Source: a virus
DNA length: 64,000 bases
Reading direction: 5' to 3' (one strand)
IMG/VR virus record: IMGVR_UViG_3300025133_000063
Location: 16,405 to 80,404 of that record
Within the stretch, counting starts at the first letter, position 1. Each line of letters begins with the position of its first letter. The notes beneath the pieces were generated by a model. That model was not told the DNA's origin and made no database searches. It saw nothing but the letters and a program-made list of their open reading frames with translations. This document shows, one piece after another, positions 28,389 through 51,662 of this stretch. The translations under genes were made by a program, and so were the position numbers.

Positions 28389-28606
28389 ATAAACATAACA
28401 AATGAGGCATGGTGATAAATGTCTAAAGAGTTAACTGTTGATATGACTACATATGTAGAAATACAACGACTACGAAAACGAATAAGAATATTGTTACAAC
28501 TAATAAAAGACGGAAATTTGTCAAAGGAGAAAGAACTTGAATTGCAGTTAGAACATTGTTATTTACAACGTGAATTAGAAATTTTTGAAAAGGATTATAG
28601 AAAAAA

Positions 28607-29639: not shown

Positions 29640-29666
29640 TATTTATAAACATCAAGGAGATAAAAG

Positions 29667-30796: not shown

Positions 30797-30799
30797 TAA

Positions 30800-32777: not shown

Positions 32778-33122
32778 ATGTCACAATTGATTACGGGCGT
32801 TTTTATGTTTGCTGTAATGCATTTTGGCATATGGTGGTCAGCAAACGCACAATTTATTGATGGTTGGGATAAGAAAACTGCTCTTACATTATCTATATTA
32901 ATGTCTATTCCAATTACACTTTTGGCATTTTTTGCATCACGATATACATATTATGCGCTTGATGAAAAAATGTGGACTGTTCGCTTTTTAGCATTTGGAA
33001 TGTCATACCTTATTTTTCCAGTATTAACATGGCTTTTTCTTAATGAAACACCATTTACGGCAAAAACAATTGTCTGTACAATATTATCCGTATTAATTAT
33101 TTTTGTACAATTGAGATATTAA
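32778..33122 (+). CDS. Four-TM membrane protein (DMT/SMR-like size)
   Basis: Four hydrophobic segments; FLNETPFT before the last TM. Confidence 0.55.
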   Translation: MSQLITGVFMFAVMHFGIWWSANAQFIDGWDKKTALTLSILMSIPITLLAFFASRYTYYALDEKMWTVRFLAFGMSYLIFPVLTWLFLNETPFTAKTIVCTILSVLIIFVQLRY

Positions 33123-33934
33123 TGCCTTCCCGTATTCCAGACAAGTTTTATCGCCCTCTTAATATGGCTATACTTGAGTCAAATTTTTGGTTGGAGACGA
33201 ACGATCCAGATTCTGCAGATTATAATACGATTGAAGGTGAAAATGTAGATCAAACTCCAGCAGCTGAGGTTTTAGGTCATGCGCTTACTACATTTTTTAA
33301 AGAGTCCGGTTATTTAACGAATGTTCTTGTTCGATCGCCAGATCCAGAAAATAACCCAAATTCGACATTTGATAAAAGTCACACCAACTATCCAGATAAG
33401 ATTGTTATTGGTGGTGAGATGGGTTTATCCTCTAGAGGAAGAAGAATGCTTTACCTCAATCTTGCAACATATGCAGAAGATTTTGATGTTAATGATATTA
33501 CACCACAAATTCTTGCAGCCGAGGCTGCTGAAACCATACGCCATGAGCTAATCCATTCAGGACAATACGATAAAAGATCGCAAGCTCAAAAAGTTTCTAG
33601 AGTAGCAGCTAAAGAAAGCTATTATGATGAAGGTCAAATATCAACGTCGAACAATCGCGAACAGTACCTTTCTGCATATATTGAAATAGATGCATATGCT
33701 CATGAATTTGCCGAATACTTGTTACGAAATTACGGTAAGCAAAAGGCACTAAGCATTATTAAGAAACCTAAAGGTCTAAATAACGTCAAGCTGCCCGATC
33801 AAATGAAAGAGTATCTAGATGGTGTTTCAAGTAAAAAGGCGTATATAAACCTGTTGAAGAAGATATATTTTCATATTAACGATCTCTTTGACAGGAAATT
33901 AATAGAAAACGTGCTTAAGCGTCTAATATCTTAG
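33122..33934 (+). CDS. Zincin-like HEXXH metallopeptidase-domain protein
   Basis: RHELIHSGQ...YLSAYIEIDAYAHE; C-terminal LIENVLKRLIS is leader-like. Confidence 0.6.
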   Translation: MPSRIPDKFYRPLNMAILESNFWLETNDPDSADYNTIEGENVDQTPAAEVLGHALTTFFKESGYLTNVLVRSPDPENNPNSTFDKSHTNYPDKIVIGGEMGLSSRGRRMLYLNLATYAEDFDVNDITPQILAAEAAETIRHELIHSGQYDKRSQAQKVSRVAAKESYYDEGQISTSNNREQYLSAYIEIDAYAHEFAEYLLRNYGKQKALSIIKKPKGLNNVKLPDQMKEYLDGVSSKKAYINLLKKIYFHINDLFDRKLIENVLKRLIS

Positions 33935-33973
33935 TGCCAATATAATATTTAAAGCAGTATAAAGGAACCAACA

Positions 33974-34261
33974 GTGAAAATTACAAAAACACAAATCAGA
34001 AGAATTATTAGTGAGAGTAGAATACTCCCCGGTGAGCGAGCCTTGGACTTATACGCAGATATGTCTTTGACCGCAGATATTAAATCGAATATGCTTAAGC
34101 TTATTGAACAAGTAGCAGACAACGCAAACCTTGATGGCTTGAATGACGATGAGGCTCTAGAATCTGCCCATGACGCATTTTGTTCACTAGTGTCGGAGAT
34201 AGCCGACGCTGTTGGTTATCATCATGTCGCAAATCAAATGGACACATTTCAACGAAAGTAA
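33974..34261 (+). CDS. Leader type II (MKITK..IRRII.E) cargo protein, function unknown
   Basis: MKITKTQIRRIISES; ATATTTA upstream. Confidence 0.7.
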   Translation: MKITKTQIRRIISESRILPGERALDLYADMSLTADIKSNMLKLIEQVADNANLDGLNDDEALESAHDAFCSLVSEIADAVGYHHVANQMDTFQRK

Positions 34262-34277
34262 GCTTTAGGGCTAATTT

Positions 34278-35111
34278 ATGTCATATGGTAATACACCTCT
34301 TATAAAAATTTCTGATGGGATTTATGGAAAACTTGAAGCATATAATCCAACAGGTTCAGTTAAAGATAGACTGATCAAGTTTCTTATTGAAAAAGAAGTT
34401 TCTAATAAGAAAATAAATTCTGACACGGTGTTCTGTGAGGCTACATCTGGAAATACTGGAATAGCCCTTGCTTCGGCTGCTGCCTCCTTTGGTGTTATTT
34501 GTAGGATATATATGCCTGCAAACATGTCAAAGGAACGTGTGGATATGATGAGTGCCTTCGGTGCTAAAATTATAAAGGTTCCTGATAATGATTTTGAAGA
34601 AGCCATACGACAACGCGATATATTTTTAAATAAAAACAAAAATTCTTGGTCGCCAATGCAGTTTAGCAATCCAAATAATATTGATTGTCATTTTTCTACT
34701 ACTGCTCCAGAAATTCATAAACAAGTCGCTAAGAAATGGTCGGCATTTATTCATGGTTCTGGTACCGGTGGAACAATCGCCGGCGTTAAGAAATATATTG
34801 ATAGCTTATCACTACCAACAAAGGTCTGTCTAGTTGTTCCTGCCGAGGAAAAACATGGAATTCAAGGAATTGGCGATGGTCAAGATTTTTTAGCAACACC
34901 AAGTGAGTATGACGACATTTATATTATAAGAACTGAAGATGCAATTACACGATCAAAACAATTTGCAAAATCCAGCGGCTATTTAGTAGGCATCAGTTCA
35001 GGGGCAAATATACTTGCTGCTGAATTGTGGAAGAAAAAAAATAAACCTGATGGAGATATTATTACTATATTGGCCGATAGAGGTGAACGTTATATGTCAA
35101 TTTATAGTTAA
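34278..35111 (+). CDS. Cysteine synthase family PLP enzyme (CysK/CysM-like)
   Basis: GNTPL, KLE..NPTGSVKDR, EATSGNTG, GTGGT, HGIQGIG, GISSGAN, DRGERY. Confidence 0.92.
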   Translation: MSYGNTPLIKISDGIYGKLEAYNPTGSVKDRLIKFLIEKEVSNKKINSDTVFCEATSGNTGIALASAAASFGVICRIYMPANMSKERVDMMSAFGAKIIKVPDNDFEEAIRQRDIFLNKNKNSWSPMQFSNPNNIDCHFSTTAPEIHKQVAKKWSAFIHGSGTGGTIAGVKKYIDSLSLPTKVCLVVPAEEKHGIQGIGDGQDFLATPSEYDDIYIIRTEDAITRSKQFAKSSGYLVGISSGANILAAELWKKKNKPDGDIITILADRGERYMSIYS

Positions 35112-35137
35112 ATGAATATTTAAATACAGAGGTTTTT

Positions 35138-35506
35138 GTGTTAGAATATTCTATGCCATTTTTTTATGAAGACAGTAATGTTCCAGCCGTGCTGTCAAAA
35201 ATCTCCCCAATTGAAATCGGCGCCATTACATTGGGGCCATTTGTTTTTTCTAGAGGGAAAATAAGTGAATCAACACGTATACACGAAACAATACACTGGC
35301 AACAATATATTGAGACAGGGATAATTGGTTTTCTTGTCTTATATTTATTGTTTTGGATAATAGGTTTATTCAAATATCGGAGTGGTGTATTGGCTTATCG
35401 TAATATGCCATTTGAGCATGAAGCATATAAACACCAAGATGATGTATCATATTTGTTTAACAGATCACGTTATGAGTGGTGTCGATTAGGATATTACAAT
35501 GAATGA
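35138..35506 (+). CDS. Small HEXXH protein with a membrane segment
   Basis: AITLG, RIHETIHWQQ, PFEHEAY. Confidence 0.6.
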   Translation: MLEYSMPFFYEDSNVPAVLSKISPIEIGAITLGPFVFSRGKISESTRIHETIHWQQYIETGIIGFLVLYLLFWIIGLFKYRSGVLAYRNMPFEHEAYKHQDDVSYLFNRSRYEWCRLGYYNE

Positions 35507-36950
35507 ATTAACGTTAAGACACTATATTAGAGAAGCTCTTGTATTAGATGCCGGTGCCGCTGGAACAGCCAGCTTAGACATACCAGATGGTATTAAAAAT
35601 ATAGATATAATGGATATAGTCACCGCAGAAATAGCCAAAGGTGATCCTACCGGTAAGAGAATGCAGCAAATTTTAGCATTTAATGAAATGGTTTACAATA
35701 TTGCTATGGAAGGTGGAAATAAAAATGCATGGCAAGCAATTGCCGAAAAAATGTTGGCTTATTGGGGTTATAATGTTGAAGACCAAACAGGCGCCGATGC
35801 AACAGGAATAACTGTTTTTTACGATGTTGAGAAAGACAATATATACTATTCAGTAAAATCATCGTTTAAATCAGGTGCTAACAGCTATAGGGCTGCTACA
35901 TCAAGCTCCAATGTTAAAATTCAGTCTATTTGTGCACTTATTATTAAGGAGCCTGAAAAGAACGTATTGGGTAATATTGGGTGTTTTTGTAACAAGAAGA
36001 ACCCTATCATAGGGTGGGGACAAGTTACTGCTCCAATATCAAGAGAAGCAGTGATAAAGAATATTTTGTCTATTGTTTCTAGTGATAATGATTTAGCAAA
36101 AAGATTTATCGATGCAACAGAAAACAAACCATCTTCTTCCATTGCTGATAAAATTATTAGTGATATTAAAAATTATTTTGCCTCGGCCGGCTTAACACCA
36201 GCAGATGGTCGTATGGGCTTAAGCCCTATGGCTGCAGTTCTTGGTGATATAAATGAAAAAGAAATAGGATCTCTTACCCTTGTAGATCCAGTTGAGCTTT
36301 TTGAAAAAACATTGGGTTCAGGTATAAAAGATGGTGTTCGTTCAGATGGCACTAAGGTTGCTCCTGAAGAGGATAGATCTGACTTTTTAAGAAGAATGAG
36401 ATCTGTCGCTAGAACGTTAAGTAGCGTTGAGATGGAAGATGTTATAGCGGCGGCTATAGGAATGTTGACATCTGCTAAGCCTGATGCACCATTGGAGGAA
36501 ACCTTAAGACAATTTACTCCTTCTACACAAGCTTATCTTAGAGAGCATTTTAAAATAAATGAATCAAGATTATTAAAAAAATATATCCGAAGTTTACTTG
36601 AATGTGGTGAAGAACCAGGGCAAACTTTACAACCTCTTATGGATCCCTTATTTAATCTTCGCGAAATAGTAAAAGAGCTAACTCTTCTAGAAGATCATAT
36701 GAATAATCCGTCAAAACAATGTCCGGATTGTATTAACAAACATTTAATGAAGTGTGAGGCCTTGTCTGAAGAGGCTATTTCTTTAGATGGTGATAACCAG
36801 TACCCATTTATTTCCAGTGTACCACAGGTTATTAGAGGGTGGCATAAGGCCGTATTAGATAACGATGTTATACCTCCAGCTGTTCCAGCTGAGATGAGAA
36901 GATTTAGAAAAATGATTATGCCACATGTGGCCAATAAATTTGAGGTTTAG
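35499..36950 (+). CDS. Leader type I polyprotein (two domains separated by an internal leader)
   Basis: N-terminal LRHYIREAL; internal NESRLLKKYIRSLLE; C-terminal domain with LLEDH...CPDC..KH. Confidence 0.7.
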   Translation: MNELTLRHYIREALVLDAGAAGTASLDIPDGIKNIDIMDIVTAEIAKGDPTGKRMQQILAFNEMVYNIAMEGGNKNAWQAIAEKMLAYWGYNVEDQTGADATGITVFYDVEKDNIYYSVKSSFKSGANSYRAATSSSNVKIQSICALIIKEPEKNVLGNIGCFCNKKNPIIGWGQVTAPISREAVIKNILSIVSSDNDLAKRFIDATENKPSSSIADKIISDIKNYFASAGLTPADGRMGLSPMAAVLGDINEKEIGSLTLVDPVELFEKTLGSGIKDGVRSDGTKVAPEEDRSDFLRRMRSVARTLSSVEMEDVIAAAIGMLTSAKPDAPLEETLRQFTPSTQAYLREHFKINESRLLKKYIRSLLECGEEPGQTLQPLMDPLFNLREIVKELTLLEDHMNNPSKQCPDCINKHLMKCEALSEEAISLDGDNQYPFISSVPQVIRGWHKAVLDNDVIPPAVPAEMRRFRKMIMPHVANKFEV

Positions 36951-36957
36951 TATAGCA

Positions 36958-36996
36958 ATGAAAATTACTAAAACAAAAAAGAGGATTTTAAAATGA
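36958..36996 (+). other. 12-codon leader-only micro-ORF (MKITKTKKRILK*), probable cassette scar
   Basis: ATGAAAATTACTAAAACA resembles the type II leader start; its TGA overlaps the ATG at 36993. Confidence 0.55.
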
Positions 36997-37385
36997 AAAT
37001 CACAAAGAGACAGCTACGAAGAATTATTAGAGAAGCTTTTACAACGGTGTCTGATGAAGAATTTGACAGGGACACCTTTGCAGACTATAGGGGTGGACTA
37101 CGAGATTTAGTTCCATCAGATCCAAAGCGCCCATGGGGATCATATGCTGGTGTTGGTGATGAGACATATTCTGATACTATTGTGATGAGTCCAAATGGAG
37201 ACTCAGTCTTGGTTGATGGTCTAGAAACTTATATACAAGATGTACCCTCACAATTACACCATACTTCAGGTTTTGAAATGAGTAAGACCGATGCAGATAA
37301 TTTAATATTCGCCCTTGAAACTCAGGAACAAGATGGTTATATAGAGCTTGGTGTCGAATACAAAAATGGAAAATGGAGTTGGTAA
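36993..37385 (+). CDS. Leader type II cargo protein, function unknown
   Basis: MKITKRQLRRIIRE. Confidence 0.75.
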   Translation: MKITKRQLRRIIREAFTTVSDEEFDRDTFADYRGGLRDLVPSDPKRPWGSYAGVGDETYSDTIVMSPNGDSVLVDGLETYIQDVPSQLHHTSGFEMSKTDADNLIFALETQEQDGYIELGVEYKNGKWSW

Positions 37386-37762
37386 TGAGAATTACAAAGA
37401 GACAACTACGAAAAATTATTAGAGAAGTTAGCGACTGGTATGATGACGAAAACGAGACGCTTGCCGACAAAAAATTTCGTGACTCCTATGAGAGTGAAAA
37501 ACGGCCCCGCGATGATTTACGAAATCGAGTACATCAATACTTGATTGATAAAAAGTTTTTCAAAGGACGTAATCTCAATGGCCGGCCACAGATCGAGATA
37601 TTCTGGGGACCACCTGAAGGACCAGATGTCCCAAAAGGTGCAGGATATACAAATCCCGCCCATGATTTTCTAAAATCAGCAGTTGAATCCGGTGACATTG
37701 ACTGGGCCACATGGGAAGAAATTGAGCCTATCTGGCGAGAAATTGACAGATCAATTAACTGA
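37385..37762 (+). CDS. Leader type II cargo protein, function unknown
   Basis: MRITKRQLRKIIRE; TAATG coupling. Confidence 0.75.
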   Translation: MRITKRQLRKIIREVSDWYDDENETLADKKFRDSYESEKRPRDDLRNRVHQYLIDKKFFKGRNLNGRPQIEIFWGPPEGPDVPKGAGYTNPAHDFLKSAVESGDIDWATWEEIEPIWREIDRSIN

Positions 37763-37782
37763 CATTTAAAAAGGAGATAACA

Positions 37783-38739
37783 ATGAAAATTACAAAAAGA
37801 CAACTTAGAAGAATCATTAGAGAAACTGGCCGGCCCGAACACGATGCCGAAGCCCGCGGCATGGTGGCTTCATACCGTCAAGGTTACAATGATGCCTATC
37901 GCGGACCAGGATATAAAAAACGTGGCAATCGCGAATATCTTCGAGGGTACCAACAGGGTGTTGCTGACGTCGAACAAGGTAAGCCCCCACCGGACGGCTT
38001 CCGGCCAGCCCGGCGCATTAGGGAAGCCGAAGGCTCTACCAAGAAATACGATGATGACTCTGCGCTTAAGGGCGGGCAAAGCAAACTTCCTGATGCCCTT
38101 CAAAAAGGGATCATTGATAAGACAGTTGATGACCGTGAAGAGCGTGAAGAAGAAGAGAGAGAAGAGAAGAATGAATCCGTACAAATTATAAAGCGACAGC
38201 TTAGAAGAACTATTCGCGAAATGATGAGGGGTCCAGCTGCTGAGATGGCTGCAGCCGCTGCAGAGACCGGTGCAGCCGGTATGGCACATCGCCGTGATGG
38301 CCTCGGTAAAAATATCACCGACGTTGACTTTCCAATTATCGTAGGTTACGAAGGTAAGTCGGAGATTGCATATAATCAGGATGAGCTGGACGACATATTG
38401 GATTATGTTGCTCCTACCCATGGCAGTTCTGGAATTCCATACAGCTTAGATTCTATTTCTGATTTAGAACCACACTCTGTTCCTGTAGGTGTTGGAATAG
38501 AGCAATTGTCTGCTGGAAAGAAAATAAAGATTACAAAAAGTCATTTAAAAAGAATTATTCAAGAAACAGTATTACGTGAAAATTTAAACAGTGCTATTGA
38601 AAAAGCACTAACAATGTCAGACACTAAATCTATTAATGTTGTAATAGAAAAAGTAAAAGAGATTGTTGGTGATCAATATAATGATGAACAAATTGCAATT
38701 GCTGTTGAAGATAGCTTTGATAACGCCATGGGAATATAA
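37783..38739 (+). CDS. Leader type II polyprotein (three or more leader copies)
   Basis: MKITKRQLRRIIRE, NESVQIIKRQLRRTIRE, KIKITKSHLKRIIQE. Confidence 0.75.
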   Translation: MKITKRQLRRIIRETGRPEHDAEARGMVASYRQGYNDAYRGPGYKKRGNREYLRGYQQGVADVEQGKPPPDGFRPARRIREAEGSTKKYDDDSALKGGQSKLPDALQKGIIDKTVDDREEREEEEREEKNESVQIIKRQLRRTIREMMRGPAAEMAAAAAETGAAGMAHRRDGLGKNITDVDFPIIVGYEGKSEIAYNQDELDDILDYVAPTHGSSGIPYSLDSISDLEPHSVPVGVGIEQLSAGKKIKITKSHLKRIIQETVLRENLNSAIEKALTMSDTKSINVVIEKVKEIVGDQYNDEQIAIAVEDSFDNAMGI

Positions 38740-38775
38740 AAAGTAAGATATATTTTGAACCTAACGGAAACTAAA

Positions 38776-39339
38776 GTGAACATTATTCGTGAATATATAA
38801 GAGAGCTTCTTGTTGAAGATTTAGCTAAGCGTCAAACTATGGTTATAGAACTGATAACTGAAGAAGACAATTCAGCAGGTCCAGGGTTTAAATACATTCA
38901 CCGTGGAATGAAGATTGATATAGGTAGTGCACCTCTCGCCTCACAGATAAGAAAAGTAGCACAAAAGAAATCAGCCGGTATAAGTGAGCGCGAAGCTGGT
39001 GCTTTTATTATGGCCAAGTTGAAAAACGAAGAAATCGGTGAATCTTGGACAACAAATAGAGATGTAGCTTCAAACTTTGCAGATGTTTGGGAGGCAACCA
39101 ATCGAGGCAGCACTCTTCACGTGATGTTTACTGGCAAGATTCCAAATAATTTTGGTTATGATCCAACAATAACTGGTGAAGAGCCTGCGATGTTTGACGA
39201 TGAAAGTGAGGTTCGAATTCCAAAAGGCGAAGAAATAGAAATCTCTTCTGTTTCTGTTTTTATTGCTAGTAAGGCCAGCGGCAAAAATTGGATGAAATTT
39301 CGCCCAGTCGCATTTAGCTTAGGCAAGGTAAGAGCATGA
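38776..39339 (+). CDS. Leader type I plus ADP-ribosyltransferase-like (R-S-E) domain
   Basis: VNIIREYIRELLVE; YIHRG...ESWTTNRDVASNFA...ESEVRI. Confidence 0.7.
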   Translation: MNIIREYIRELLVEDLAKRQTMVIELITEEDNSAGPGFKYIHRGMKIDIGSAPLASQIRKVAQKKSAGISEREAGAFIMAKLKNEEIGESWTTNRDVASNFADVWEATNRGSTLHVMFTGKIPNNFGYDPTITGEEPAMFDDESEVRIPKGEEIEISSVSVFIASKASGKNWMKFRPVAFSLGKVRA

Positions 39340-40127
39340 ACCTACTCCGCGAATACATAAGAGAGCTGCTAGCAGAAGACGCCATGGGCTTTGTCCACGA
39401 TCTTGCAGCTACATCAGAAGAGTTTGGTGAAGAAGGCGAAATGTTCTTTGGTGGTAATCCCGGAAAAGGCGGAGGCAAGGCAATTAAGCGCGCATTCAAT
39501 GCAAATGCTGATCACCAATGGTTGGCAACACTAGACACTGTCCATTGGACCGGTGAGATTTACAATATGGAAGGGCTTGTTGGAAAAGGAAAGGACGAAC
39601 TTTCTGCAACAATGACGCTTCCAGGCGAAGATTTTGATTGGCAGCTTTATTATGGATTATGGATAAAGGGCCGCATAACCTTAGCAGCAAATGATCAAGA
39701 CGCGTTATATACAGGTCACTATTCGACAGGTACTCCAGACGAGAAACAAGCACATATAGATAAATCTTCTGGAAGAAACAAGCTGCCATCCGTCTCAAAA
39801 GATTATAGTCGTTACGGACAACTTAAACGTGGGAACGAATATGCCGAAAGGACGGCGAAGAAAATTCCATATCTTTTAGACCAGTCTATGTGGAATCCTT
39901 CTGGGAATAATAACGAAGCACTGGTCGACAATTGGAAACCTGTTGGAATAATCCTAACGAAATTCGACGAGATAGATATCGTTTCAGGATTGGGGTATGT
40001 TGAGGGCACCAAAGAAGATATTGAAGAATTTACGCTTGGTGTGACGAAACAAATTCTATTAACGGCCCTTGCGTTTGGTGTACCAGTTTATGATACAGAG
40101 CGAGAGTTATTATGGAGCCCGGAATGA
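39336..40127 (+). CDS. Leader type I plus unknown domain (possibly ART-like)
   Basis: MNLLREYIRELLAE; VHW...ELSA...NEALV spacing. Confidence 0.65.
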   Translation: MNLLREYIRELLAEDAMGFVHDLAATSEEFGEEGEMFFGGNPGKGGGKAIKRAFNANADHQWLATLDTVHWTGEIYNMEGLVGKGKDELSATMTLPGEDFDWQLYYGLWIKGRITLAANDQDALYTGHYSTGTPDEKQAHIDKSSGRNKLPSVSKDYSRYGQLKRGNEYAERTAKKIPYLLDQSMWNPSGNNNEALVDNWKPVGIILTKFDEIDIVSGLGYVEGTKEDIEEFTLGVTKQILLTALAFGVPVYDTERELLWSPE

Positions 40128-40633
40128 AATTCATGTCATTTCAGAGCTGGCTGGCACAAACAATAGCAGATGATGGTTGTTGTCAATCTGAAAACATATC
40201 ATATCTTTGGGCTGATCCGAATCAGGAAGATGTGCTGGATTATTTCGCCACTCAATATGATTTAAACACTATACGGATGGAAGACATTCAAGCTGCTGCC
40301 GATGAAATGTATCAGAAAACTCAGTCTGCCATAGCCTCTGATTTTCCAGATGAGATTCAAGTTTGGCGGTGTGGTGGATTAGCCGGTGATGTAACATCGG
40401 TGACGACTAACAAGAGAGTTGCTGATGGTGGGTGTAGCGGTGGTTATTATGGTGGCAAGGATGCCACCGTCACATCATATATGGTAAATCGTTCTGATGT
40501 TCTAGCTTCGGTTGAGCATCTCTGGCCCGCGGGCGATTTTGTGGAGGACGAACTCTTGGTCCGCCCCGGAGCACTCCGGCCAATGAAAGAATCTTTACTC
40601 CGTGAATACATAAGAGGGCTCCTAGAGGTTTAG
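40124..40633 (+). CDS. ART-like (R-S-E) domain with C-terminal type I leader
   Basis: VWRCG..VTSVTTNKRVA...EDELLV; ends MKESLLREYIRGLLEV. Confidence 0.7.
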   Translation: MKFMSFQSWLAQTIADDGCCQSENISYLWADPNQEDVLDYFATQYDLNTIRMEDIQAAADEMYQKTQSAIASDFPDEIQVWRCGGLAGDVTSVTTNKRVADGGCSGGYYGGKDATVTSYMVNRSDVLASVEHLWPAGDFVEDELLVRPGALRPMKESLLREYIRGLLEV

Positions 40634-40634
40634 A

Positions 40635-41252: not shown

Positions 41253-41254
41253 CA

Positions 41255-43116: not shown

Positions 43117-44239
43117 ATACATAAGAGTTTTACTCGAGCAAGAGCAAGGATCGAAAGGCAGTCTTATTGTTGTCGACATTCAACCAGAGTACGAGAGCGG
43201 CACACTGTTCGATGTCGGTGATATGTTAAGAGCTGCAGCAGAAGATTATTCCAGAGTGTTATTCTTATTCAACGGTGAAGACACTCTTGGTATGGTTTCA
43301 GAATCTGCACTAAAGAACTTCTATTTTGAAAAGCTTGACTACGATGAAGAAGTGTTTGATGAATTACTATCTAAGTCAGAGTTTTTTGACAAAGGCTACG
43401 GCTTCTTTAGGGACGTCATGGATTCCGATGCTTGCTTTGACCGCAACCAGGTTGTGAAAATCGTCAAATATATGATCGATAAAGACATTCAAGATATTCG
43501 TGATCTTGAAGAAGAAGACATTGAAGTTATTGGGGTTAGTGAGCTGTTATTTGATGATCTTGAAGACTACGGATTCTGGGTTCCTGAACTATCTGATGAG
43601 TTGCCTAATTGGAACGGATCAGATCTTGTAGGTGGCGCCAGAAACGAATGTATGGCTGAAGTTGAGATACTCGGCGTAGCACAAGGGTTAAGCTTTAATC
43701 ACGTTGACAAGTTCATATATGAGGGCGACAATAGATATATAGAAACCTTGACAGAGGCTGCTACGTTTAAGCATAAGGGATCTACGGTTTATGGACACAA
43801 GATAGAAGACTTGCTCCGTAATCTTAAGAGGGGCGAAGGCATATATGAAGACGAAGGACTTGAAATGATAGAATTCCAGAAAGATTATCTGGAAGGCATG
43901 TCGAAGAAGCCGTCAGTCGAACTATACAGAGTAGTGTTTGCAAAGTCGATTGATGATGTCGATAGAAGTAATCTCGGGCATCACTATACAGACGACTATG
44001 ATTCGTTCACTTTGCAGATGATGGAATCTTTGTTATCTCAGGCGAGGCAGGAAAACCCTTCGCTTGAGCTGGAGGACGCTCGGATAGTAAAAGTAAGCGC
44101 CCCGGCAAATGCGATAGATTACGAAGAAGTTATGAGGACATGGTCATTATTCCCATATGAATATGAGATCACTCTAGGCGACACTAGCGGCGTAGAGATA
44201 CTTGACATAGACGATGCTTACGAAAGTAGCGAGAGATAA
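43100..44239 (+). CDS. Leader type I plus isochorismatase-like domain plus ART-like domain
   Basis: MNLLHEYIRVLLE; LIVVDIQP...VGGARNEC; LTE linker; LYRVV..LGHHYT...EYEITL. Confidence 0.65.
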   Translation: MNLLHEYIRVLLEQEQGSKGSLIVVDIQPEYESGTLFDVGDMLRAAAEDYSRVLFLFNGEDTLGMVSESALKNFYFEKLDYDEEVFDELLSKSEFFDKGYGFFRDVMDSDACFDRNQVVKIVKYMIDKDIQDIRDLEEEDIEVIGVSELLFDDLEDYGFWVPELSDELPNWNGSDLVGGARNECMAEVEILGVAQGLSFNHVDKFIYEGDNRYIETLTEAATFKHKGSTVYGHKIEDLLRNLKRGEGIYEDEGLEMIEFQKDYLEGMSKKPSVELYRVVFAKSIDDVDRSNLGHHYTDDYDSFTLQMMESLLSQARQENPSLELEDARIVKVSAPANAIDYEEVMRTWSLFPYEYEITLGDTSGVEILDIDDAYESSER

Positions 44240-44241
44240 AT

Positions 44242-44820
44242 ATGAACCTACTCCGTGAATACATAAGAGAACTCCTCACTGAATCTGTCGATCCCAAAAT
44301 CATGTCAATGATTGATAAACTCGAGGAACTAGAAGGTTTTGTTGAGATCATGCCAGACAGAGCAGTGATTATGATTAACAAAGTTGTTGGGGAAGATCGC
44401 TATCCGGTTCCACTCGGCCATGTGGCGTGGGGAGAAGGAAGGCTCGATGGTCCATGCCTTGGAGCAAAAATAGTATCTTCATCCACTATGAAAATGGGTT
44501 TTGGTCCGCTTGCTTACGATGTTGCGATTGAGGTAACCGGCGGACTAACATCAGATCGAGATTCAGTTACGAAATATGCAAATGCTGTCTGGGATCGATA
44601 TATGAATGGTCGTCCTGATGTCCAAGTGCTACAAATGGATAATGATCGAAATCACCTAACTCCTGAAGACGAAGATAATTGTGAACAACGTTCCGCCAGA
44701 GTCGATTCAGGAGGATGGTCACCACCAGGCAGCTTTTGGGATTCTTCTTTGAGTAAGGTTTACAAAAAATCAGGCACTCCAGTCATGGATGAGTTGCGCC
44801 GAAGAGGGATGTTAGACTAA
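44242..44820 (+). CDS. Leader type I plus GNAT-like domain
   Basis: MNLLREYIRELLTE; GFGPLAYDVA...LTSDR.SV..YANAVWD. Confidence 0.6.
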   Translation: MNLLREYIRELLTESVDPKIMSMIDKLEELEGFVEIMPDRAVIMINKVVGEDRYPVPLGHVAWGEGRLDGPCLGAKIVSSSTMKMGFGPLAYDVAIEVTGGLTSDRDSVTKYANAVWDRYMNGRPDVQVLQMDNDRNHLTPEDEDNCEQRSARVDSGGWSPPGSFWDSSLSKVYKKSGTPVMDELRRRGMLD

Positions 44821-45179
44821 TGGAACTCATCCGCGAATACATAAGAGATTTGATAAAAGAATCGATAGCTATCGGCCAATGTTATCCTCACGCTGTTAAT
44901 ATGGCAAAAGATTCAAAAGTGTCAGATAGAAATGATCTGTCGAAATTCAAGGTAGTGCACGGTCGAGTTACAAACAAATGGAATGATAAGTCATTTGAAC
45001 ATGCATGGGTTGAAAAGGGTGATATGATATTTGATTGGCAAACCCATTCAACAAAACCAGACGGTGTTCCTCATGATGTATACTACGATATGTATCAGCC
45101 TGAGATCTACAAAGAATACACCGGTGCAGAAACAATAATGAACTGTGTCAATTCAGGACATGCAGGACCTTGGCGATGA
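44820..45179 (+). CDS. Leader type I plus transglutaminase/papain-like Cys-His-Asp domain
   Basis: MELIREYIRDLIKE; GQCY...VVHG...HAWVE...IFD. Confidence 0.65.
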   Translation: MELIREYIRDLIKESIAIGQCYPHAVNMAKDSKVSDRNDLSKFKVVHGRVTNKWNDKSFEHAWVEKGDMIFDWQTHSTKPDGVPHDVYYDMYQPEIYKEYTGAETIMNCVNSGHAGPWR

Positions 45180-45490
45180 AACTGTTACGTGAATACATAA
45201 GAGAGATGCTTAATGAACAAATAGACCTGCAGGCTGTTATAAATGATTTGGATAATCTTACTGCAGATGAGATCATGAAGCTGTGGCGTGCTGTCGCTAC
45301 TGCCAGTAGGAAGAAAGAAAAGGAGATAAAAGCCGACTTTAACAAAGGCGACAAAGTCGAATTCGACCACGATGGCGAGACAATCACTGGCACTGTCGCC
45401 CGGCGAGGTGGAAAGTTTGTGAGTGTTAATGTTCACGGGTACGGCTCGCCGTGGAAAAGAAATCCATCTAGCCTGAGAAAAATATCATGA
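45176..45490 (+). CDS. Leader type I plus small SH3-like domain
   Basis: MKLLREYIREMLNE; FNKGDKVEF...GTV...KFVSV...WK..PS.L. Confidence 0.65.
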   Translation: MKLLREYIREMLNEQIDLQAVINDLDNLTADEIMKLWRAVATASRKKEKEIKADFNKGDKVEFDHDGETITGTVARRGGKFVSVNVHGYGSPWKRNPSSLRKIS

Positions 45491-45993
45491 ACATTCTCCG
45501 CGAGTACATAAGAGAGCTATTGAGAGAAAAACGAAATACCGCCGGCACCTTTTATCACTTTAGTAATGAAAAGTTTGATGAATTTAGTCTCTCCAACGCG
45601 TCGGATAGCGCAATATGGGGGAAGGGAATTTATCTTTCTGACGACCCTGACGATTTGAGCGGCTGGGGGAAAGAAGACAGAAACCGAGGCTTCTTGTACA
45701 CAGTGGAGATAAAATCCGATCAGAAAAATATTATAGATATGACACAACCGATCCCTCCAGAAATATATGAAAGGATTGAGGCGCATCTTGAAAGACCTCT
45801 GTCAGACATAACCAAAGAGGATGGGATATTCCCTTTTAATACTTTAGATCGAAAATCTGGATCTGTGGCAAACGCAATGCGAGAAATGGGCTTTGAAGTT
45901 TTAAAGCACCCACCACCGGGTAGCCATAAGGGAAGCCATTATTTAGTCACCGAACCATCAGTTATAGGCGTTTTAGAGGTTCAACAACAATGA
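45487..45993 (+). CDS. Leader type I plus ART-like (H-Y class) domain
   Basis: MNILREYIRELLRE; FYHFS..FDEF...WGKGIYLS...LYTVEI...HYLV. Confidence 0.7.
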   Translation: MNILREYIRELLREKRNTAGTFYHFSNEKFDEFSLSNASDSAIWGKGIYLSDDPDDLSGWGKEDRNRGFLYTVEIKSDQKNIIDMTQPIPPEIYERIEAHLERPLSDITKEDGIFPFNTLDRKSGSVANAMREMGFEVLKHPPPGSHKGSHYLVTEPSVIGVLEVQQQ

Positions 45994-46529
45994 ACCTCCT
46001 ACGCGAATACATAAGAGAGCTGCTAGCTGAGGCTCCCACCCTTAACCACAAGGGGGATGAGAATTATTTCCGAGTTGAACTGGGAAGAATTGGATATGCC
46101 CAAGGTGCCCGACATCTTAGGTTCCAAGACTGTCAAGCTGACGTCGATAAAATCATGCAAACACCTGAGTACCTGGTTGCTAAAGAAAAATACGAAACCA
46201 CCAACACGACGAAGGACATGGTTGAAGATCCGGATTCTCCGAATGGGTTCAGGATGCAGAAAAAACCAGCAACATTCCGGCCACCGTTCTACGATGTAGC
46301 AAATGCATGGATCCACGATGAAGATAATCGTGGCAAAGGTCATGGTAAAGAAATCTATAAAGCATTCATAGACAAAGCCAGTGAGTATGCAAAAAGAAGC
46401 GGTGGTGTCTTTATCGGAGCACATCACTGCACAATAGGTTCAGGCACATCAGAAGCGGCAAAGCGGGTTTGGAAATCTATAACTAAAAACTACACATCAT
46501 CTGGTGATGTTATCTTTATAGGATTATGA
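45990..46529 (+). CDS. Leader type I plus GNAT acetyltransferase
   Basis: MNLLREYIRELLAE; acetyl-CoA motif A NRGKGHGKEIY; SEAAKRVW. Confidence 0.75.
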   Translation: MNLLREYIRELLAEAPTLNHKGDENYFRVELGRIGYAQGARHLRFQDCQADVDKIMQTPEYLVAKEKYETTNTTKDMVEDPDSPNGFRMQKKPATFRPPFYDVANAWIHDEDNRGKGHGKEIYKAFIDKASEYAKRSGGVFIGAHHCTIGSGTSEAAKRVWKSITKNYTSSGDVIFIGL

Positions 46530-46530
46530 A

Positions 46531-47892
46531 ATGAGCTTACTTCGTGAATACATAAGGTTGTTAAGTGAAAAACAAGTTCGTGATCAAAAAAAGAAACGTG
46601 TTCTTTATCACATTGGTCCACGCCCTGCAAAGCCTATGCCAATGTCTCGCCCTTATGCACAGTCCTGGCGCCGGTACTGGCTCGATCAAGGTGTGGAATC
46701 TGGAGTATTTTTCTCACCCAACCCAATTGACATAGCCCAGTATCATGGAATTAGTGGTGATGTTTATGCCTACAAAATTCCAGAGTGGGTAATTGCAAAA
46801 GCAGGCGGAGTCCACAGATATGATCATGGCTCTGAAGTGTTGATTTCTGCCGATGTATGGCAAGAAGCTGGAGATGAAATAGAGTTTCTTGGAAAGAGCA
46901 TGCCGGAAAAAGAGCTTTGGGAGAAGATTGAATCTCTTGGAGCTGAACCATTAAGAAGATCTGCCGGAAGCCGACCAGGCTGGATGAGTGATGACGAATG
47001 GGAAAAAGCAAGTATGAACAAAACCACACAGAGTCATATATCTGGACTAAGATCTACTAAGCATCTAAAAAACGCCATCCGCATGATGAAGCCCAATGAG
47101 CGTGACGAAGCTCTTACCGCGTTTGAGACTATTGATGTCCTTAGAAAAAAAGATTATGAGATAATAGATATGATCAAGAGCTATATGAATGAGTCATCTC
47201 TTCGGGGTTACATAAAAGAGGTGTTGGAAAGTCAACCTGAAGAGCCAGATATGACTCAATACGTTGACGATCTAGAAAATGAGATTTTTACGATGCTTTT
47301 TCAAAAGAGCACATATGACTATCTTCAGTCTCAGGATGAAGGTATAGAATCGACGATGATCATGAATACATCTCTGTTTGATGAATATAATAATATAAAC
47401 GAAGTACATTTAGGTATCCTGGTGAACGATTCAGAGTCCGCGGACGTCGAAGCTGCATATGTTTGTGCCCCAGAGGAGAGGAATAAGTCGAACCTTGTGT
47501 TGAGTATCAATATTCCTAGAAACTATCCCCAGGTTGAGGGTTTCCAAGATTGGCTCAGTGCGGAGCTAGCCGATAGTTTATCTCACGAAATCCAGCACAG
47601 TTGTGATACATCCGAAATGTTGGCTGCCGATATTCCGGAAGGTGAGGCGAAATGGGAGAGTTTGGAAAACATAGAAAAGTACTATGCTTCCGAAGCCGAA
47701 ACAAGAGGTCACATCGCCGGTATGATGGGAAGAGCTCGGAGGACTGAACAAGATCCTGAGAAGCTTTTGCAACATGACGTTGAAACTGTGATGATGAATG
47801 CTCTCGACAAAGGGTATACAAAACAGGAGATGATTCCCGTCGTTCAAAGAATATATGATAAGTGGTCTGAGAGATTGGGGGATCGAAAATGA
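46531..47892 (+). CDS. Leader type I polyprotein: ART-like domain, internal leader, HEXXH domain
   Basis: MSLLREYIRLLSE; LYHIG..GVFFS..SEVLI; MNESSLRGYIKEVLES; SHEIQH...YY..EAETRGH. Confidence 0.7.
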   Translation: MSLLREYIRLLSEKQVRDQKKKRVLYHIGPRPAKPMPMSRPYAQSWRRYWLDQGVESGVFFSPNPIDIAQYHGISGDVYAYKIPEWVIAKAGGVHRYDHGSEVLISADVWQEAGDEIEFLGKSMPEKELWEKIESLGAEPLRRSAGSRPGWMSDDEWEKASMNKTTQSHISGLRSTKHLKNAIRMMKPNERDEALTAFETIDVLRKKDYEIIDMIKSYMNESSLRGYIKEVLESQPEEPDMTQYVDDLENEIFTMLFQKSTYDYLQSQDEGIESTMIMNTSLFDEYNNINEVHLGILVNDSESADVEAAYVCAPEERNKSNLVLSINIPRNYPQVEGFQDWLSAELADSLSHEIQHSCDTSEMLAADIPEGEAKWESLENIEKYYASEAETRGHIAGMMGRARRTEQDPEKLLQHDVETVMMNALDKGYTKQEMIPVVQRIYDKWSERLGDRK

Positions 47893-48563
47893 AATACTTA
47901 CGACAATACATAAGAGAAGTATTAGAAACTTCATTACCGGTGCAGCCTAATTCACAGATATTTTGTGACATGGATGGAGTATTAGTAGATTTTGAAACAT
48001 CAGTTGTTACTTTTATAAATCACTTACTAGATGGTGGTAGTATTCCAAATGTTAAAAGAAGCAAAGGGCATTTTTACCGTCTTAATTTAATACATAAAGA
48101 AATGGGAAAAGATTGGAGGCTACAGACTGGATCCGACTTAAATCTTCCGGTAATACGATCATTTATGTTTATTAGCATCGCCGCAAATCCCGGTGCAATA
48201 TTTGCTTCAATGAAACCACTTCAAGATGGTGTAGATCAACTTTGGCCGGCTTTAAATTCTACAGATTTAACAGTGAATATTTTATCTGCTCCAATCAATG
48301 GAAACAAAAGCGCACCAATGTCCGCTGCCGAGGGAAAAACAAGCTGGGTAGAGCACTGGTTAAAACCACAACCAAACAATATTATTATTACTCCAGCTCG
48401 CCAAAAGCCAGAATACGCCAACACTAATGGTACGCCAAATATACTTATAGATGATAAAGCATCAACTATTGATTCGTGGAACGCTGCTGGTGGAATTGGA
48501 ATTCTTCATACACCTGGAAATAGTACAAAAACGATAACGGTTTTAAAAGAATTACTGAAATGA
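47889..48563 (+). CDS. Leader type I plus HAD 5'(3')-deoxyribonucleotidase-like domain
   Basis: MKYLRQYIREVLE; FCDMDGVLVDF, ILSAP, GK..W, LIDDK...W.AAGG.GILH. Confidence 0.85.
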   Translation: MKYLRQYIREVLETSLPVQPNSQIFCDMDGVLVDFETSVVTFINHLLDGGSIPNVKRSKGHFYRLNLIHKEMGKDWRLQTGSDLNLPVIRSFMFISIAANPGAIFASMKPLQDGVDQLWPALNSTDLTVNILSAPINGNKSAPMSAAEGKTSWVEHWLKPQPNNIIITPARQKPEYANTNGTPNILIDDKASTIDSWNAAGGIGILHTPGNSTKTITVLKELLK

Positions 48564-49963
48564 AAATTACAAGAAGACAACTAAGAAGAATTATTAAGGA
48601 AGAATTATACCACAATTCTTTTAGTAATTTAGATCTTTCTAGAAATCACCTATCTTTTCGAGGAGATTCACGGCTTTTTGAAAGATCATATATTACTGGA
48701 ACATTAGGTCTTTCTATTCCTCTTCAGGAATCTTATCCATATTCACCATCGTTTGAAAAGCGCATTATTCATGAGCAGACACTCTACGAAAACTGGTGGG
48801 GAGACGATTGGTATCTTTTTGAGGGTGCTTATGGAGAATTATTAAAAACACATTCGGCAGAAGCTCTATTGGAGAAATTGCATGAAGGACCCATTCTTGA
48901 TTGGGGAAAAGGTCTTTTATCTACTGCGGTTCAGAAAGGAAAAGAGGTAGTTAAGAAAGGTATTGAAGCTGGTAAAGAAGCCCTTATGAGTGCAGAAGAG
49001 GGCATCAAAAAATTTGGTAAGGATGCATGGAATATTTTAAGTGCAATGTGGTTAACCATGAAAGGTGGCGCAAGTGAAATTGGATCATGGGTTAAGTCTG
49101 TAGTTCGATTAGGAATCGGCTCTATGTTGGAAAGCATTGAGAAAGCACTCAAGTTTCTAGCAACAAAATTACCAGAATGGAAGATGCCCACGTTCGGTGA
49201 ATATGCTCAAAAGGGTCTTGACTTTATAAATTCTTTAAAAGGCAAACTAGAGAACCTCGATGGATGGAAGGGTGTTATTACAGTCTCGGGGATTGCGATT
49301 GGATTGAAGTGGCTTTGGAATAAGGTAGGCAAATGGATAGACGAATTAAAAGAGAAGGTGGGTGGTAAATTCACTGAGACATCGGAAATTGCATCAAACG
49401 TAGCAGGTGGTATCGATGCTGCTAAAGAATGGATAAAAGAAACTGCAAAAGAAAAGCTTGCGGCTATAGGCGGCAACGCCTTTAAGAAAATTATGGGAGT
49501 GTTGGCTTCCGTATCATCAGGTGTAAAGCCGTGGTGGGATGCAGCTGTAAAAGTAGCCGGCGGAGTAGAATTAATTATTTCTTCCCTTGGAGATGCAGCC
49601 AGTCGCTTTATGCGAATAAACAAACCAAAAGAAGTTCAGACGGAAAATATAAAAATTACAAGAAAACAACTTAGAAAAATTATTAGAGAAGTTTCAACTC
49701 CAACACTTCAACAATGGGCAAATCAACATAATTTACCTATAGACTTAGATCCGATTACTGGAGAAGAAGTTATACTCATTGATGATGAATTTGCAATGAG
49801 ACAAGGAATTCCGGACGGTGCCCAATGGAGTGTTGAGCGATCATATGATGATGATGGTTGGGTTGTATCAATCCCAAATTCTGATACACTAGGGTTTGAG
49901 GAAATTTCATATGGTGGCTTAGACGATATGGATGATATAGAAATGCAGGTTAGAGGTTATTAA
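48560..49963 (+). CDS. Leader type II polyprotein with a long amphipathic helical domain
   Basis: MKITRRQLRRIIKEE; internal TENIKITRKQLRKIIRE. Confidence 0.7.
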   Translation: MKITRRQLRRIIKEELYHNSFSNLDLSRNHLSFRGDSRLFERSYITGTLGLSIPLQESYPYSPSFEKRIIHEQTLYENWWGDDWYLFEGAYGELLKTHSAEALLEKLHEGPILDWGKGLLSTAVQKGKEVVKKGIEAGKEALMSAEEGIKKFGKDAWNILSAMWLTMKGGASEIGSWVKSVVRLGIGSMLESIEKALKFLATKLPEWKMPTFGEYAQKGLDFINSLKGKLENLDGWKGVITVSGIAIGLKWLWNKVGKWIDELKEKVGGKFTETSEIASNVAGGIDAAKEWIKETAKEKLAAIGGNAFKKIMGVLASVSSGVKPWWDAAVKVAGGVELIISSLGDAASRFMRINKPKEVQTENIKITRKQLRKIIREVSTPTLQQWANQHNLPIDLDPITGEEVILIDDEFAMRQGIPDGAQWSVERSYDDDGWVVSIPNSDTLGFEEISYGGLDDMDDIEMQVRGY

Positions 49964-50006
49964 TAAAATGAAGAAATGTACCTTTTACCTTATAGGATTA
50001 AGATAA

Positions 50007-50915
50007 ATGAGTAATTTATTAAGAACATATGTCCGTACTGTTTTGACTGAATCATCTAAATGGTTAGGTATGACACCTGCAGATATTCTTGTTGATTTAA
50101 AGCGATTAGAAGGTAAGAACATTATATTTTTCGACACCGAAACAACTGGGTTAGGCCCTAAGAAATCGCAAATTACAGAAGTAGCAGCGATGGTTGTACC
50201 ATTGACAGGGTGGCAAGATAAATTTGTTATAACACAATCATTTCATGAAAAAGCAAACCTTACACCTGAAACTGTTGATAGAGCGAATGCCCACGATGCT
50301 GAGAGAATTCAGAAACTTGCTGACGATCCAAACTACAAGCCATCAGCAAAATCAGAGCGTGAATTACTGAGTATGACAAACTATGGTAGTCATTCTAAAG
50401 ATTATATGGATGAGCATAATCTTTTAGTTACATATAGCGAATGGTGTGATTCAATTCCCAATAAAGTATATGCTGCTCATAATGCTCCATTTGACATGAG
50501 GATGTTAAATGGTAGGTTAAGAAAGTATGGTGAGAAGCCAATACCAAAAGCCGAGGTTTTAGATACCTTAACACTAGTGCAACTATTCCTTCAACCGGTA
50601 ATAAAAGCTGCTACACCAGATGGAAGAACGGCTGATATGGCTTCTAAGCTAGATACAGGTCGAAGGGGTTTATACAAATATTCGTCTAGACTGGGAACTC
50701 TTGCAAAAGCTGCTGGTGTATCCATTGATAATTGGCACAGTGCTGATGCAGACGTAATAATGATGATGAGTGTTGTCGCTGCCGTAATAGACGAAATTGA
50801 AAATGGCGAATATGATTCAGAAAAAGCTGCTGAAGGATCTAAGTTTGCTCAAAAAAGATATTTTAGAAAGCGTGAGAAAAAATATAGAAAAGAAAAAGCA
50901 GCAAAGAAGAAATAA
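50007..50915 (+). CDS. Leader type I plus DEDDh 3'-5' exonuclease
   Basis: LLRTYVRTVLTE; FDTETTG, AHNAPFD, WHSADAD. Confidence 0.88.
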   Translation: MSNLLRTYVRTVLTESSKWLGMTPADILVDLKRLEGKNIIFFDTETTGLGPKKSQITEVAAMVVPLTGWQDKFVITQSFHEKANLTPETVDRANAHDAERIQKLADDPNYKPSAKSERELLSMTNYGSHSKDYMDEHNLLVTYSEWCDSIPNKVYAAHNAPFDMRMLNGRLRKYGEKPIPKAEVLDTLTLVQLFLQPVIKAATPDGRTADMASKLDTGRRGLYKYSSRLGTLAKAAGVSIDNWHSADADVIMMMSVVAAVIDEIENGEYDSEKAAEGSKFAQKRYFRKREKKYRKEKAAKKK

Positions 50916-50918
50916 GGA

Positions 50919-51662
50919 ATGAAACACTTGTCTGAAAAATCAATTCTTAGAGAATATATTAGAAATTTGTTATTAGAATCTGCTTCTGCCCCAAAAGTTA
51001 TTTTCCTTGCAGGGGCTCCTGGATCTGGAAAGTCTACAGTAATTCAACGTTTAGGATTAGCCAATAAATTTGAGATAGTAAATCCTGATGATGCATATGA
51101 AGAAGCAAAAAGAAGGGACAATCTTCCATTTGACAAGACAGATATATTAGATAAATACAAGCCAATAAAAGATGAATACTTGGCCGCCATCGCAATAGAT
51201 GATCAAGAAACCATTAATAGATTAGAACCTGAATATTTGCGTTTGAAAGCACCTCTTTCTGCTGATGCAAAGGCGTTTAGTGCAGCAAGATCAGGGGCAA
51301 GTAAAAGAAAAAAGCAATTAGCGGTAGAAAATAAAGATTTTTTGGTTGATGGTACAGGTGGTAACTTTAACGAAATTAATTCTCAAATAAAAAAGTTACG
51401 CAACATTGGGTATAAAACGGCAATGATTTATATCGATATTGATTTGGAAACATCAATTGCCAGGAATATTGATAGAGGTAAAAGGGGTGGCAGAAGATTG
51501 ACCGACAGTGCTGTTGAAAGATCTCATTCAGGTGTCACCGCAAATAAAGAATTATATAAAGATTTGTTTGGAAAAAACTTTTTTTATATTGATGCTTCAC
51601 CGGCAGGTTATGAGAAAAGCATCAACAATGTAGCACAAGAAATAAAAGAATTTTTGAGATAA
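50919..51662 (+). CDS. Leader type I plus Zeta-toxin-like P-loop kinase
   Basis: ILREYIRNLLLE; AGAPGSGKST, VNPDD, VDGTG, RN..RG..GGR. Confidence 0.8.
   Translation: MKHLSEKSILREYIRNLLLESASAPKVIFLAGAPGSGKSTVIQRLGLANKFEIVNPDDAYEEAKRRDNLPFDKTDILDKYKPIKDEYLAAIAIDDQETINRLEPEYLRLKAPLSADAKAFSAARSGASKRKKQLAVENKDFLVDGTGGNFNEINSQIKKLRNIGYKTAMIYIDIDLETSIARNIDRGKRGGRRLTDSAVERSHSGVTANKELYKDLFGKNFFYIDASPAGYEKSINNVAQEIKEFLR

Follow-up and report, generated by a model that had tools for sequence, protein, structure and literature searches.

Two leader peptides shared by an array of unrelated phage genes: candidate capsid targeting sequences of the T4 type

The DNA studied here is a 64 kb window out of an 80.4 kb viral contig (IMG/VR record IMGVR_UViG_3300025133_000063; 27% complete). 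In the window, a row of tandem genes encodes proteins that carry one of two short leader peptides, and the question raised by the locus is why proteins of unrelated sequence have the same peptide in common. The type I leader is M-x-L-L-R-E-Y-I-R-E-L-L-x-E, and the type II leader is M-K-I-T-K-R-Q-L-R-R-I-I-R-E (MKITKRQLRRIIRE). According to the analyses below, both leaders are likely to be capsid targeting sequences (CTS) of the T4 type, which would be removed by a protease of the gp21 family, and the cargo would be delivered to the host with the DNA. The relatives analysed were five large IMG/VR genomes, including G002, a complete genome of 293 kb.

The array and its two leaders

The array proper extends from 33974 to 51662. 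Twenty-two tagged genes on the + strand hold 26 clear leader copies, and two further degenerate copies both sit in the gene 41255-42256. The genes of the array are listed here in window coordinates (aa, amino acids).

33974-34261, +, type II-tagged gene of 95 aa, GTG start, MKITKTQIRRIISE
35499-36950, +, gene of 483 aa, N-terminal type I leader degenerate (35511), second type I copy inside the gene (36570-36599)
36993-37385, +, type II-tagged gene of 130 aa with a conserved leader, a hypervariable linker and a compact alpha/beta domain
37385-37762, +, type II-tagged gene, ATG start at 37385, MRITKRQLRKIIRE
37783-38739, +, gene of 318 aa with three type II copies (37786, 38182, 38527), a candidate polyprotein
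38776-39339, +, type I-tagged gene of 187 aa from the GTG at 38776, the start that gives the T4 register
39336-40127, +, type I-tagged gene of 263 aa, cargo with an ADP-ribosyltransferase-like predicted fold
40112-40633, +, gene of 173 aa with a type I copy at the C-terminus (40595-40624)
40635-41252, +, type I-tagged gene of 205 aa
41255-42256, +, gene of 333 aa with a degenerate type I-like N-terminus (LLKSYINEVAL) and another such copy near the C-terminus, as read from the translation
42253-43116, +, gene of 287 aa with an alpha/beta-hydrolase-like domain, an internal type I copy (42715) and a second domain
43100-44239, +, type I-tagged gene of 379 aa
44242-44820, +, type I-tagged gene of 192 aa, directly after the 45990-46529 gene in a marine relative
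44820-45179, +, type I-tagged gene of 119 aa
45176-45490, +, type I-tagged gene of 104 aa from the ATG at 45176
45487-45993, +, type I-tagged gene of 168 aa with a weak ART-PolyVal match under the Pfam cut-off
45990-46529, +, type I-tagged gene of 179 aa
46531-47892, +, gene of 453 aa, type I leader at the N-terminus and a further copy inside the gene (47197)
47889-48563, +, type I-tagged gene of 224 aa with a weak NT5C/HAD match
48560-49963, +, gene of 467 aa, type II leader at the N-terminus and a further copy inside the gene (49652)
50007-50915, +, DEDDh exonuclease (RNase_T) with the degenerate type I leader LLRTYVRTVLTE
50919-51662, +, Zeta-toxin/AAA_33-type P-loop kinase with a type I leader at residues 9-20 and L-S-E before the leader
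33122-33934, +, gene upstream of the array, untagged here; its 52%-identical G002 orthologue starts with the type I-like leader MRFLKEYISQVLKE

Leader copies were searched by fuzzy matching in six frames. At up to 3-4 substitutions 24 copies were found, and 27 under looser matching; every copy is on the + strand and within 33977-50972. The rest of the 80.4 kb contig gave matches at the chance level only, at 4 mismatches, and holds no leader copy. As a motif-free test, the N-terminal 12-mers of open reading frames (ORFs) that are unrelated at residues 26-60 were clustered. In this contig 11 ORFs clustered under the type I leader and 5 under type II; in G002 the clusters comprised 27 ORFs of type II and 8 of type I; and the control pair, IPII/IPIII of T4, was recovered. 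When the leaders were masked, an all-against-all BLASTP of 24 array proteins detected no match at E <= 0.01.

An earlier note on this DNA had described about 20 genes under one of two leaders, each with an otherwise unrelated protein, and had proposed a scan of the whole genome. The number of genes and the lack of relationship are both borne out by these analyses, and the scan of the full contig confines the copies to the array. The note's range of 33122-51662 starts too early, and three genes within it are untagged (33122-33934, 34278-35111 and 35138-35506). The leaders are N-terminal in 19 genes, with lengths of 12-14 residues (14 of type I, two of them degenerate, and 5 of type II). Its summary understated the seven further copies, at 36570, 38182, 38527, 40595, 42715, 47197 and 49652, which are internal or C-terminal.

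The leaders are not limited to this contig. The DNA core of the type I leader is found clustered on many IMG/VR contigs, and a few arrays of G002 together contain 38 leader copies, with about 35-38 genes tagged. The type I array of G002 spans the genome ends, and its type II leaders are at 47.6-56.6 kb and 284.5-286.3 kb. A 96-aa acidic ORF of G002 upstream of DnaE (221322-221612), whose type I-like N-terminus is MNSLRLLIREILRE, was considered as a tagged replication gene and rejected; it is an isolated orphan cassette outside the arrays, with no counterpart in the window.

Selection acts mainly on the peptide, because the codons of the conserved Leu residues at positions 2 and 10 (each Leu in 16 of 18) are as random as the background and only the leader core TAC ATA AGA shows codon bias beyond the usage of the array itself (p 0.005 to 0.0003).

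Leaders, T4 capsid targeting sequences and the heads of relatives

In T4, the CTS is present on IPI, IPII, IPIII and Alt, and is removed by the prohead protease gp21 (Mullaney and Black 1996; PMC9026906, PMC3012670). It is a propeptide of 10-19 residues, in which residues 4 and 7 serve for targeting and residues 8 and 10 for processing, and gp21 cuts the T4 propeptides after L/I-x-E (PMC9026906). The N-termini of IPIII and IPII are MKTYQEFIAE/A, where the slash marks the cleavage site. In the register M1-N2-L3-L4-R5-E6-Y7-I8-R9-E10, the type I leader matches IPII/IPIII at positions 4, 6, 7, 8 and 10, with L4, E6, Y7, I8 and E10 in place of Y4, E6, F7, I8 and E10 of T4. A regular expression built from the T4 positions, ^M..h.E[FYW][IL].E, finds 6 ORFs in the contig and 5 in G002, and 0.00 in shuffled sequences.

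The conservation ends at the putative cleavage site. In 73 non-redundant type I copies it ends at L10-x-E12 (E in 78%), and in 45 non-redundant type II copies at I11-x-E13 (E in 96%); the positions past the leader Glu look random in all 118 copies. The same boundary is observed in orthologues of single proteins. For one type II protein with 52 orthologues, the majority identity is 83% in the leader, 23% in the next 15 residues (with 43% gaps) and 66% in the domain, and E14 is invariant both in this alignment and in that of the type I 39336 family. In the AlphaFold2 (AF2) models, the leader is a separate helix followed by a low-confidence stretch; the model of the type II 130-aa protein consists of the leader helix, a disordered linker and a confident domain.

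The relatives have the protease and the head expected in a T4-like system. The lineage is uncultured and marine, with a genome of about 290 kb and a DnaE polymerase, and its capsid protein places it as a member of the wider T4 superfamily. Of the phages in culture, Microcystis phage Mel-JY01, the Flavobacterium 'immuto' phages and RM378 come closest. The contig, which encodes a DnaE polymerase, a ThyA-like enzyme, GroEL and a peptide deformylase, is collinear with 201-283 kb of G002 at protein identities of 35-70%. A Peptidase_S77 (T4 gp21 family) protease above the Pfam cut-off is present in five of the five large related genomes. The head module of G002 is composed of terminase, portal, protease, two small core proteins, an acidic scaffold-like protein of 562 aa and two capsid paralogues, and matches the PHROG portal, protease and major head families. 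The maturation site of T4 gp23, LTE65/A, is aligned to LRE61/A of the G002 capsid protein. Two small proteins adjoining the protease have leader-like N-termini in all five genomes. In silico, the earlier note's view of the leader as a capsid-targeting and maturation tag of the T4 type is supported by the CTS register, the L/I-x-E boundary, the S77 protease and capsid site of the relatives, the selection on the peptide and the modularity of the tag between orthologues.

The capsid paralogues of G002 are encoded in tandem (L036, 16269-18167 and 18261-20000+). Their first ~120 residues, propeptide included, are nearly identical, and they are presumably the equivalents of gp23 and gp24.

For the tagged proteins, docking, cleavage, packaging and injection are steps that we infer. 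The leader would form a short amphipathic helix and dock the newly made protein on the scaffolding core of the assembling prohead. The gp21-family protease would then cut after Glu, in type I at I8-R9-E10 and/or L12-x-E14 and in type II at I12-R13-E14. The freed cargo would be retained in the head and would enter the host along with the DNA. Besides many small acidic proteins, the host would receive an exonuclease, a P-loop kinase and at least one ADP-ribosyltransferase-like enzyme.

Several points weigh against capsid targeting. The window contig, a 27% fragment, carries no head genes and no S77 protease, and because of this we infer the protease of the window phage from its collinearity with G002. 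The likeness of type II to the CTS of IPIII is loose and fits only the I-x-E end; the propeptide of T4 gp24, MAKINELLRE, is closer to type II, and is still a weak match. The likeness between the head-core proteins and the leaders is modest: with a position-specific scoring matrix (PSSM) of type II, one of the two proteins beside the protease, Protein A, was third of about 400 non-array proteins (9.4 bits), and the other, Protein B, was unranked against the leaders. Upstream of the arrays, no late-promoter motif in common with the head genes is found, and the sole window match (35112) to the candidate motif ATGAATATTTAT described below is within chance. One orthologue, the 33122 gene, is tagless. 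Cargo of the nucleotidase-like and kinase kinds could equally serve as ordinary cytoplasmic enzymes. To our knowledge, thirty to forty cargo species per head far exceeds anything measured.

Cargo, candidate polyproteins and cassette exchange

Two cargo domains are confirmed by Pfam, the DEDDh exonuclease (RNase_T, 1.5e-13) and the Zeta/AAA_33 kinase (1.3e-12). The alpha/beta hydrolase, ART-PolyVal and NT5C/HAD assignments rest on weak matches. Among the cargo labels of the earlier note, the exonuclease, the Zeta-like kinase and one ADP-ribosyltransferase (ART)-like fold were recovered, and these three weak ones only as such; GNAT, transglutaminase-like, isochorismatase-like and HExxH were not reproduced by Pfam even at E <= 1. 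No MuF domain was detected in the Pfam scans of the array proteins (E <= 0.01, and E <= 1 for ten of them). The cargo is mostly acidic, with a median pI of 5.1 for type I and 4.5 for type II.

The ART-like cargo is that of gene 39336-40127. In its 57 orthologues R52, S144-S145 and E194 are invariant, in the right order for the ART triad (R / S-x-S / E). The AF2 model (pLDDT 82.6) has ARTs as its top structural matches, namely CteC (Z 7.1 over 162 residues), Tpt1 (5.6) and DarT (4.6), followed by SopF and pierisin. These scores are moderate (Z < 8, Foldseek E 0.014), and the family profile gave no match against the PDB sequences, nor was any match obtained at the sequence level. According to the predicted fold and the invariant residues, the cargo is probably a divergent ADP-ribosyltransferase, like T4 Alt. 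For the type II 130-aa cargo (36993-37385), the fold search gave nothing convincing (Z at most 4.2, Foldseek E about 1). A search of the ESM Atlas returned clusters of viral hypothetical proteins and one lead, EspN/DUF4765 at 0.91. A search of a large protein collection with residues 1-40 returned orthologues with the same cargo only, and no census of tagged proteins.

The internal copies suggest polyproteins. A Glu is located within four residues upstream of 9 of the 10 internal type I copies and 3 of the 4 internal type II copies. This arrangement fits predicted cleavage on both sides of the leader, with a P3 residue that is not always L, I or V. Such proteins, of the form 'domain A - tag - domain B', would be loaded whole and then cut apart. 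In G002, the first, hydrolase-like domain of gene 42253 is encoded by an untagged gene of its own. Gene 40112 ends in its leader, and a 95%-identical homologue (L020) reads through the leader into a downstream cargo. Cargo is also observed with and without the tag in the 33122 gene and its G002 orthologue.

The cassettes are rearranged between phages. The array genes are less conserved than the backbone, with a G002 homologue for 11 of 23 against 50 of 62 (p = 0.006). Two marine metagenomes each contain about 20 contigs whose match is limited to the 42-nt type II leader, with flanking sequences that are not alike. A 3.6 kb contig of a 90%-identical marine relative has the 45990, 44242 and 39336 genes in this order, with breakpoints at the gene starts. 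In other metagenome contigs the leader of one gene is joined to the cargo of another, or three cassettes are skipped. The cassette order is different in G002 as well, and the breakpoints are at gene starts and leader ends. Many leader-to-leader joints proved to be multi-mapping artefacts of the repeated leader and were discarded; the joints accepted all had long flanks (record 30) or defined inserted letters. The tag is the sole conserved stretch, so its DNA would supply the short homology for the swap, loss and reordering of cassettes between phages.

In four marine metagenomes, a ~96%-identical variant of the 3' part of the 43100-44239 gene (43781-44247) is present at a depth of 28-234x, against 3-18x for the rest of the array. 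The variant stops at the next leader and runs on into different sequence, which suggests that a more abundant relative has the 43100-44239 cargo domain beside another cassette.

Put together, the rearrangements could describe an integron-like but integrase-free arsenal, in which dozens of effector cassettes would be interchangeable in the marine phage community through a 14-residue loading tag whose DNA is also the exchange site. The two tags would be orthogonal addresses that set copy number, position or release order in the head. This wider proposal is speculative, and we put it forward as a doubtful possibility. If it is true, one virion would deliver tens of pre-made enzymes and inhibitors.

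If the tags work as in T4, the rule of the N-terminal leader would identify the whole injected proteome of a lineage of abundant uncultured marine giant phages. It would thereby yield a long list, as yet without annotation, of proteins that are candidates for host takeover and anti-defence, divergent ADP-ribosyltransferases among them. The T4 CTS would then be no peculiarity of the T-even phages but a loading signal of the T4 superfamily, ancient and portable, expandable to about 8-9% of a genome, usable in polyproteins and exchanged between phages. Short, natural and diverse loading tags would be useful for protein delivery by phage capsids, where the T4 CTS is already in use.

Alternatives, known systems and flanking features

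The leader could instead be an amphipathic helix with another role inside the cell, such as localisation, oligomerisation, recognition by a chaperonin or protease, or control of stability. Several cargo types are indeed ordinary cytoplasmic enzymes, one orthologue works untagged, and the phage encodes GroEL as well as a secreted trypsin-like peptidase adjoining the array. We consider this explanation unlikely, because it does not account for the identity with the CTS register, the L/I-x-E boundary, the disordered linker after the Glu, or the confinement of the leaders to phages that have both a gp21-type protease and a T4-like head. The leader is also without the hydrophobic core of a Sec or Tat signal. 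The peptidase (Trypsin_2, 6e-14), which has a signal peptide and is encoded on the - strand directly past the array (51848-52555), has its G002 homologue at about 250 kb, distant from all arrays; it is thus probably unrelated to leader processing.

A leader that is mainly a DNA-level recombination handle for cassette exchange, with an incidental peptide, is quite improbable. The bias of the TAC ATA AGA core, the metagenome contigs that share only the type II leader, and the breakpoints at gene starts and leader ends in G002 and the 90%-identical relative all favour such a handle, but the random Leu codons do not, and orthologues of 51-87% identity are most alike in the leader peptide, up to the invariant Glu at its end. 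In addition, the match to the T4 CTS register is a property of the protein, and the biased DNA core is only 9-18 nt long. The exchange of DNA is best seen as a secondary consequence of the leader and not as its primary function. Descent of all the genes from one paralogue family, in which a functionless N-terminus was conserved, would agree with their tandem order, common strand and similar sizes. It is nevertheless very hard to believe when the masked proteins show no similarity, the cargo folds differ (RNase_T, P-loop kinase, ART-like, alpha/beta hydrolase-like), the conservation stops sharply at the Glu, and leaders are also found internally and at C-termini.

As capsid targeting sequences, the leaders would follow a known principle. 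Reviews of T4 state that its diverse internal proteins have only the CTS in common, that T-even phages differ in their internal-protein genes but retain the CTS, and that this sequence may allow T4-like phages varied loads (PMC9026906, PMC3012670). Because the principle is already established for T4 in these reviews, the system is not of an undescribed kind. The array is like T4 in its short, putative N-terminal propeptide ending in L/I-x-E on otherwise unrelated proteins, and the relatives are like T4 in their gp21-family protease, T4-like head module and conserved cleavage site of the capsid protein. One array cargo is ART-like, and T4 Alt is a CTS-tagged packaged ART, which is also processed at its C-terminus. 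Unlike T4, which has about four tagged genes, the window has 22 and G002 about 35-38. There are two leader classes, in separate arrays in G002; the leader, of 14 residues, may contain two sites for cleavage; the internal copies are suggestive of polyproteins; and much of the cargo is enzyme-sized or acidic, whereas the T4 internal proteins are small and basic. The features that appear to be new are the scale, the use of two classes of tag, the leader copies inside genes, the abundance of enzymes among the cargo and the community-wide exchange of cassettes.

The ejection or inner-body proteins of phiKZ, 201phi2-1 and SPN3US are processed by a diverged gp21 homologue (PMC5694885, PMC9026906). 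As in that group, head-internal proteins would be cut after Glu here; its propeptides are thought to be prohead-targeting, and the N-termini of its paralogues are conserved. The group differs in its S/A-x-E motif, in propeptides mostly >100 residues long and in having no common short tag; 8 to 19 proteins are processed, most of them structural, and no tandem cassette array is known. In the present lineage the leaders have 14 residues and end in L/I-x-E, and the protease is a direct match to the T4 S77 family. Phages also deliver diverse effectors, often ARTs, via the head as MuF-fused polymorphic toxins and polyvalent proteins (work of Iyer and Aravind cited in PMC9503650). In those systems too the effector part is exchanged modularly; they are loaded by a whole structural domain (MuF, portal) or as one giant multidomain protein, whereas the array has a 14-residue peptide that is predicted to be cleavable.

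Encapsulins provide a further likeness, in that a short terminal peptide directs unrelated enzymes into a shell of the HK97 fold. The encapsulin peptide differs in being C-terminal and uncleaved and in binding the shell protein itself, and the cargo is not delivered to another cell.

Among cultured phages, the Flavobacterium phage vB_FspM_immuto (MW353176, host Flavobacterium sp. LMO8) encodes an annotated prohead serine protease, and type II-like tags are present on four of its annotated genes (immuto35A_156, _175, _176 and _190); no virion proteome of the immuto phages was found in the literature. A search of cultured phages with 15-residue leader profiles gave nothing for type I. Since the profiles also missed the CTS of T4 itself, this blank is uninformative, and de novo clustering of N-termini was used instead. 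In Microcystis phage Mel-JY01 (PP395634), three neighbouring ORFs (60276, 60923 and 62056) begin with MIKLKSLLQEIISD, possibly a diverged leader that ends in Asp instead of Glu, or the ORFs may be plain paralogues. The leader strings and large CTS-tagged arrays are absent from the searchable literature.

With regard to the timing of expression, the T4 late promoter TATAAATA shows no enrichment (7 sites against 9.2 expected). None of the sequencing runs listed as carrying the sequence is of RNA. The motif ATGAATATTTAT is located 37-93 nt upstream of four structural genes of G002 (portal, scaffold-like, 400-aa and 1054-aa). It is a candidate late promoter, and is not enriched across the G002 genome. 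DnaE, the GroEL region and further non-structural genes are preceded, at a distance of 30-60 nt, by extended -10 promoters (TGnTATAAT) with a TTGTGAA -35-like box. These sigma70-type promoters are likely to be the early/middle class of the lineage. None is present in the window array, the main type II array of G002 or the G002 head module, and one falls inside the second type II array of G002 (285,653). The sites are as follows.

G002 (L036) 8599, 14503, 20570 and 23834 (genome 168599, 174503, 180570 and 183834), ATGAATATTTAT sites
Window 4506, 21701, 24659, 28380, 60915 and 63696, and many sites in G002, extended -10 (sigma70-type) promoters

Two other features stand beside the arrays or resemble them. 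The untagged gene 34278-35111 at the array edge encodes a PLP enzyme, cysteine-synthase-like (PALP, 3.6e-52), and it and the next gene are kept as a pair beside the type I array of G002 (4343-5532). At 17870-32250 of G002 (L028-L029), 13 small ORFs of 60-86 aa all start with MKVGDLVK and form a separate tandem family, unrelated to both leaders.

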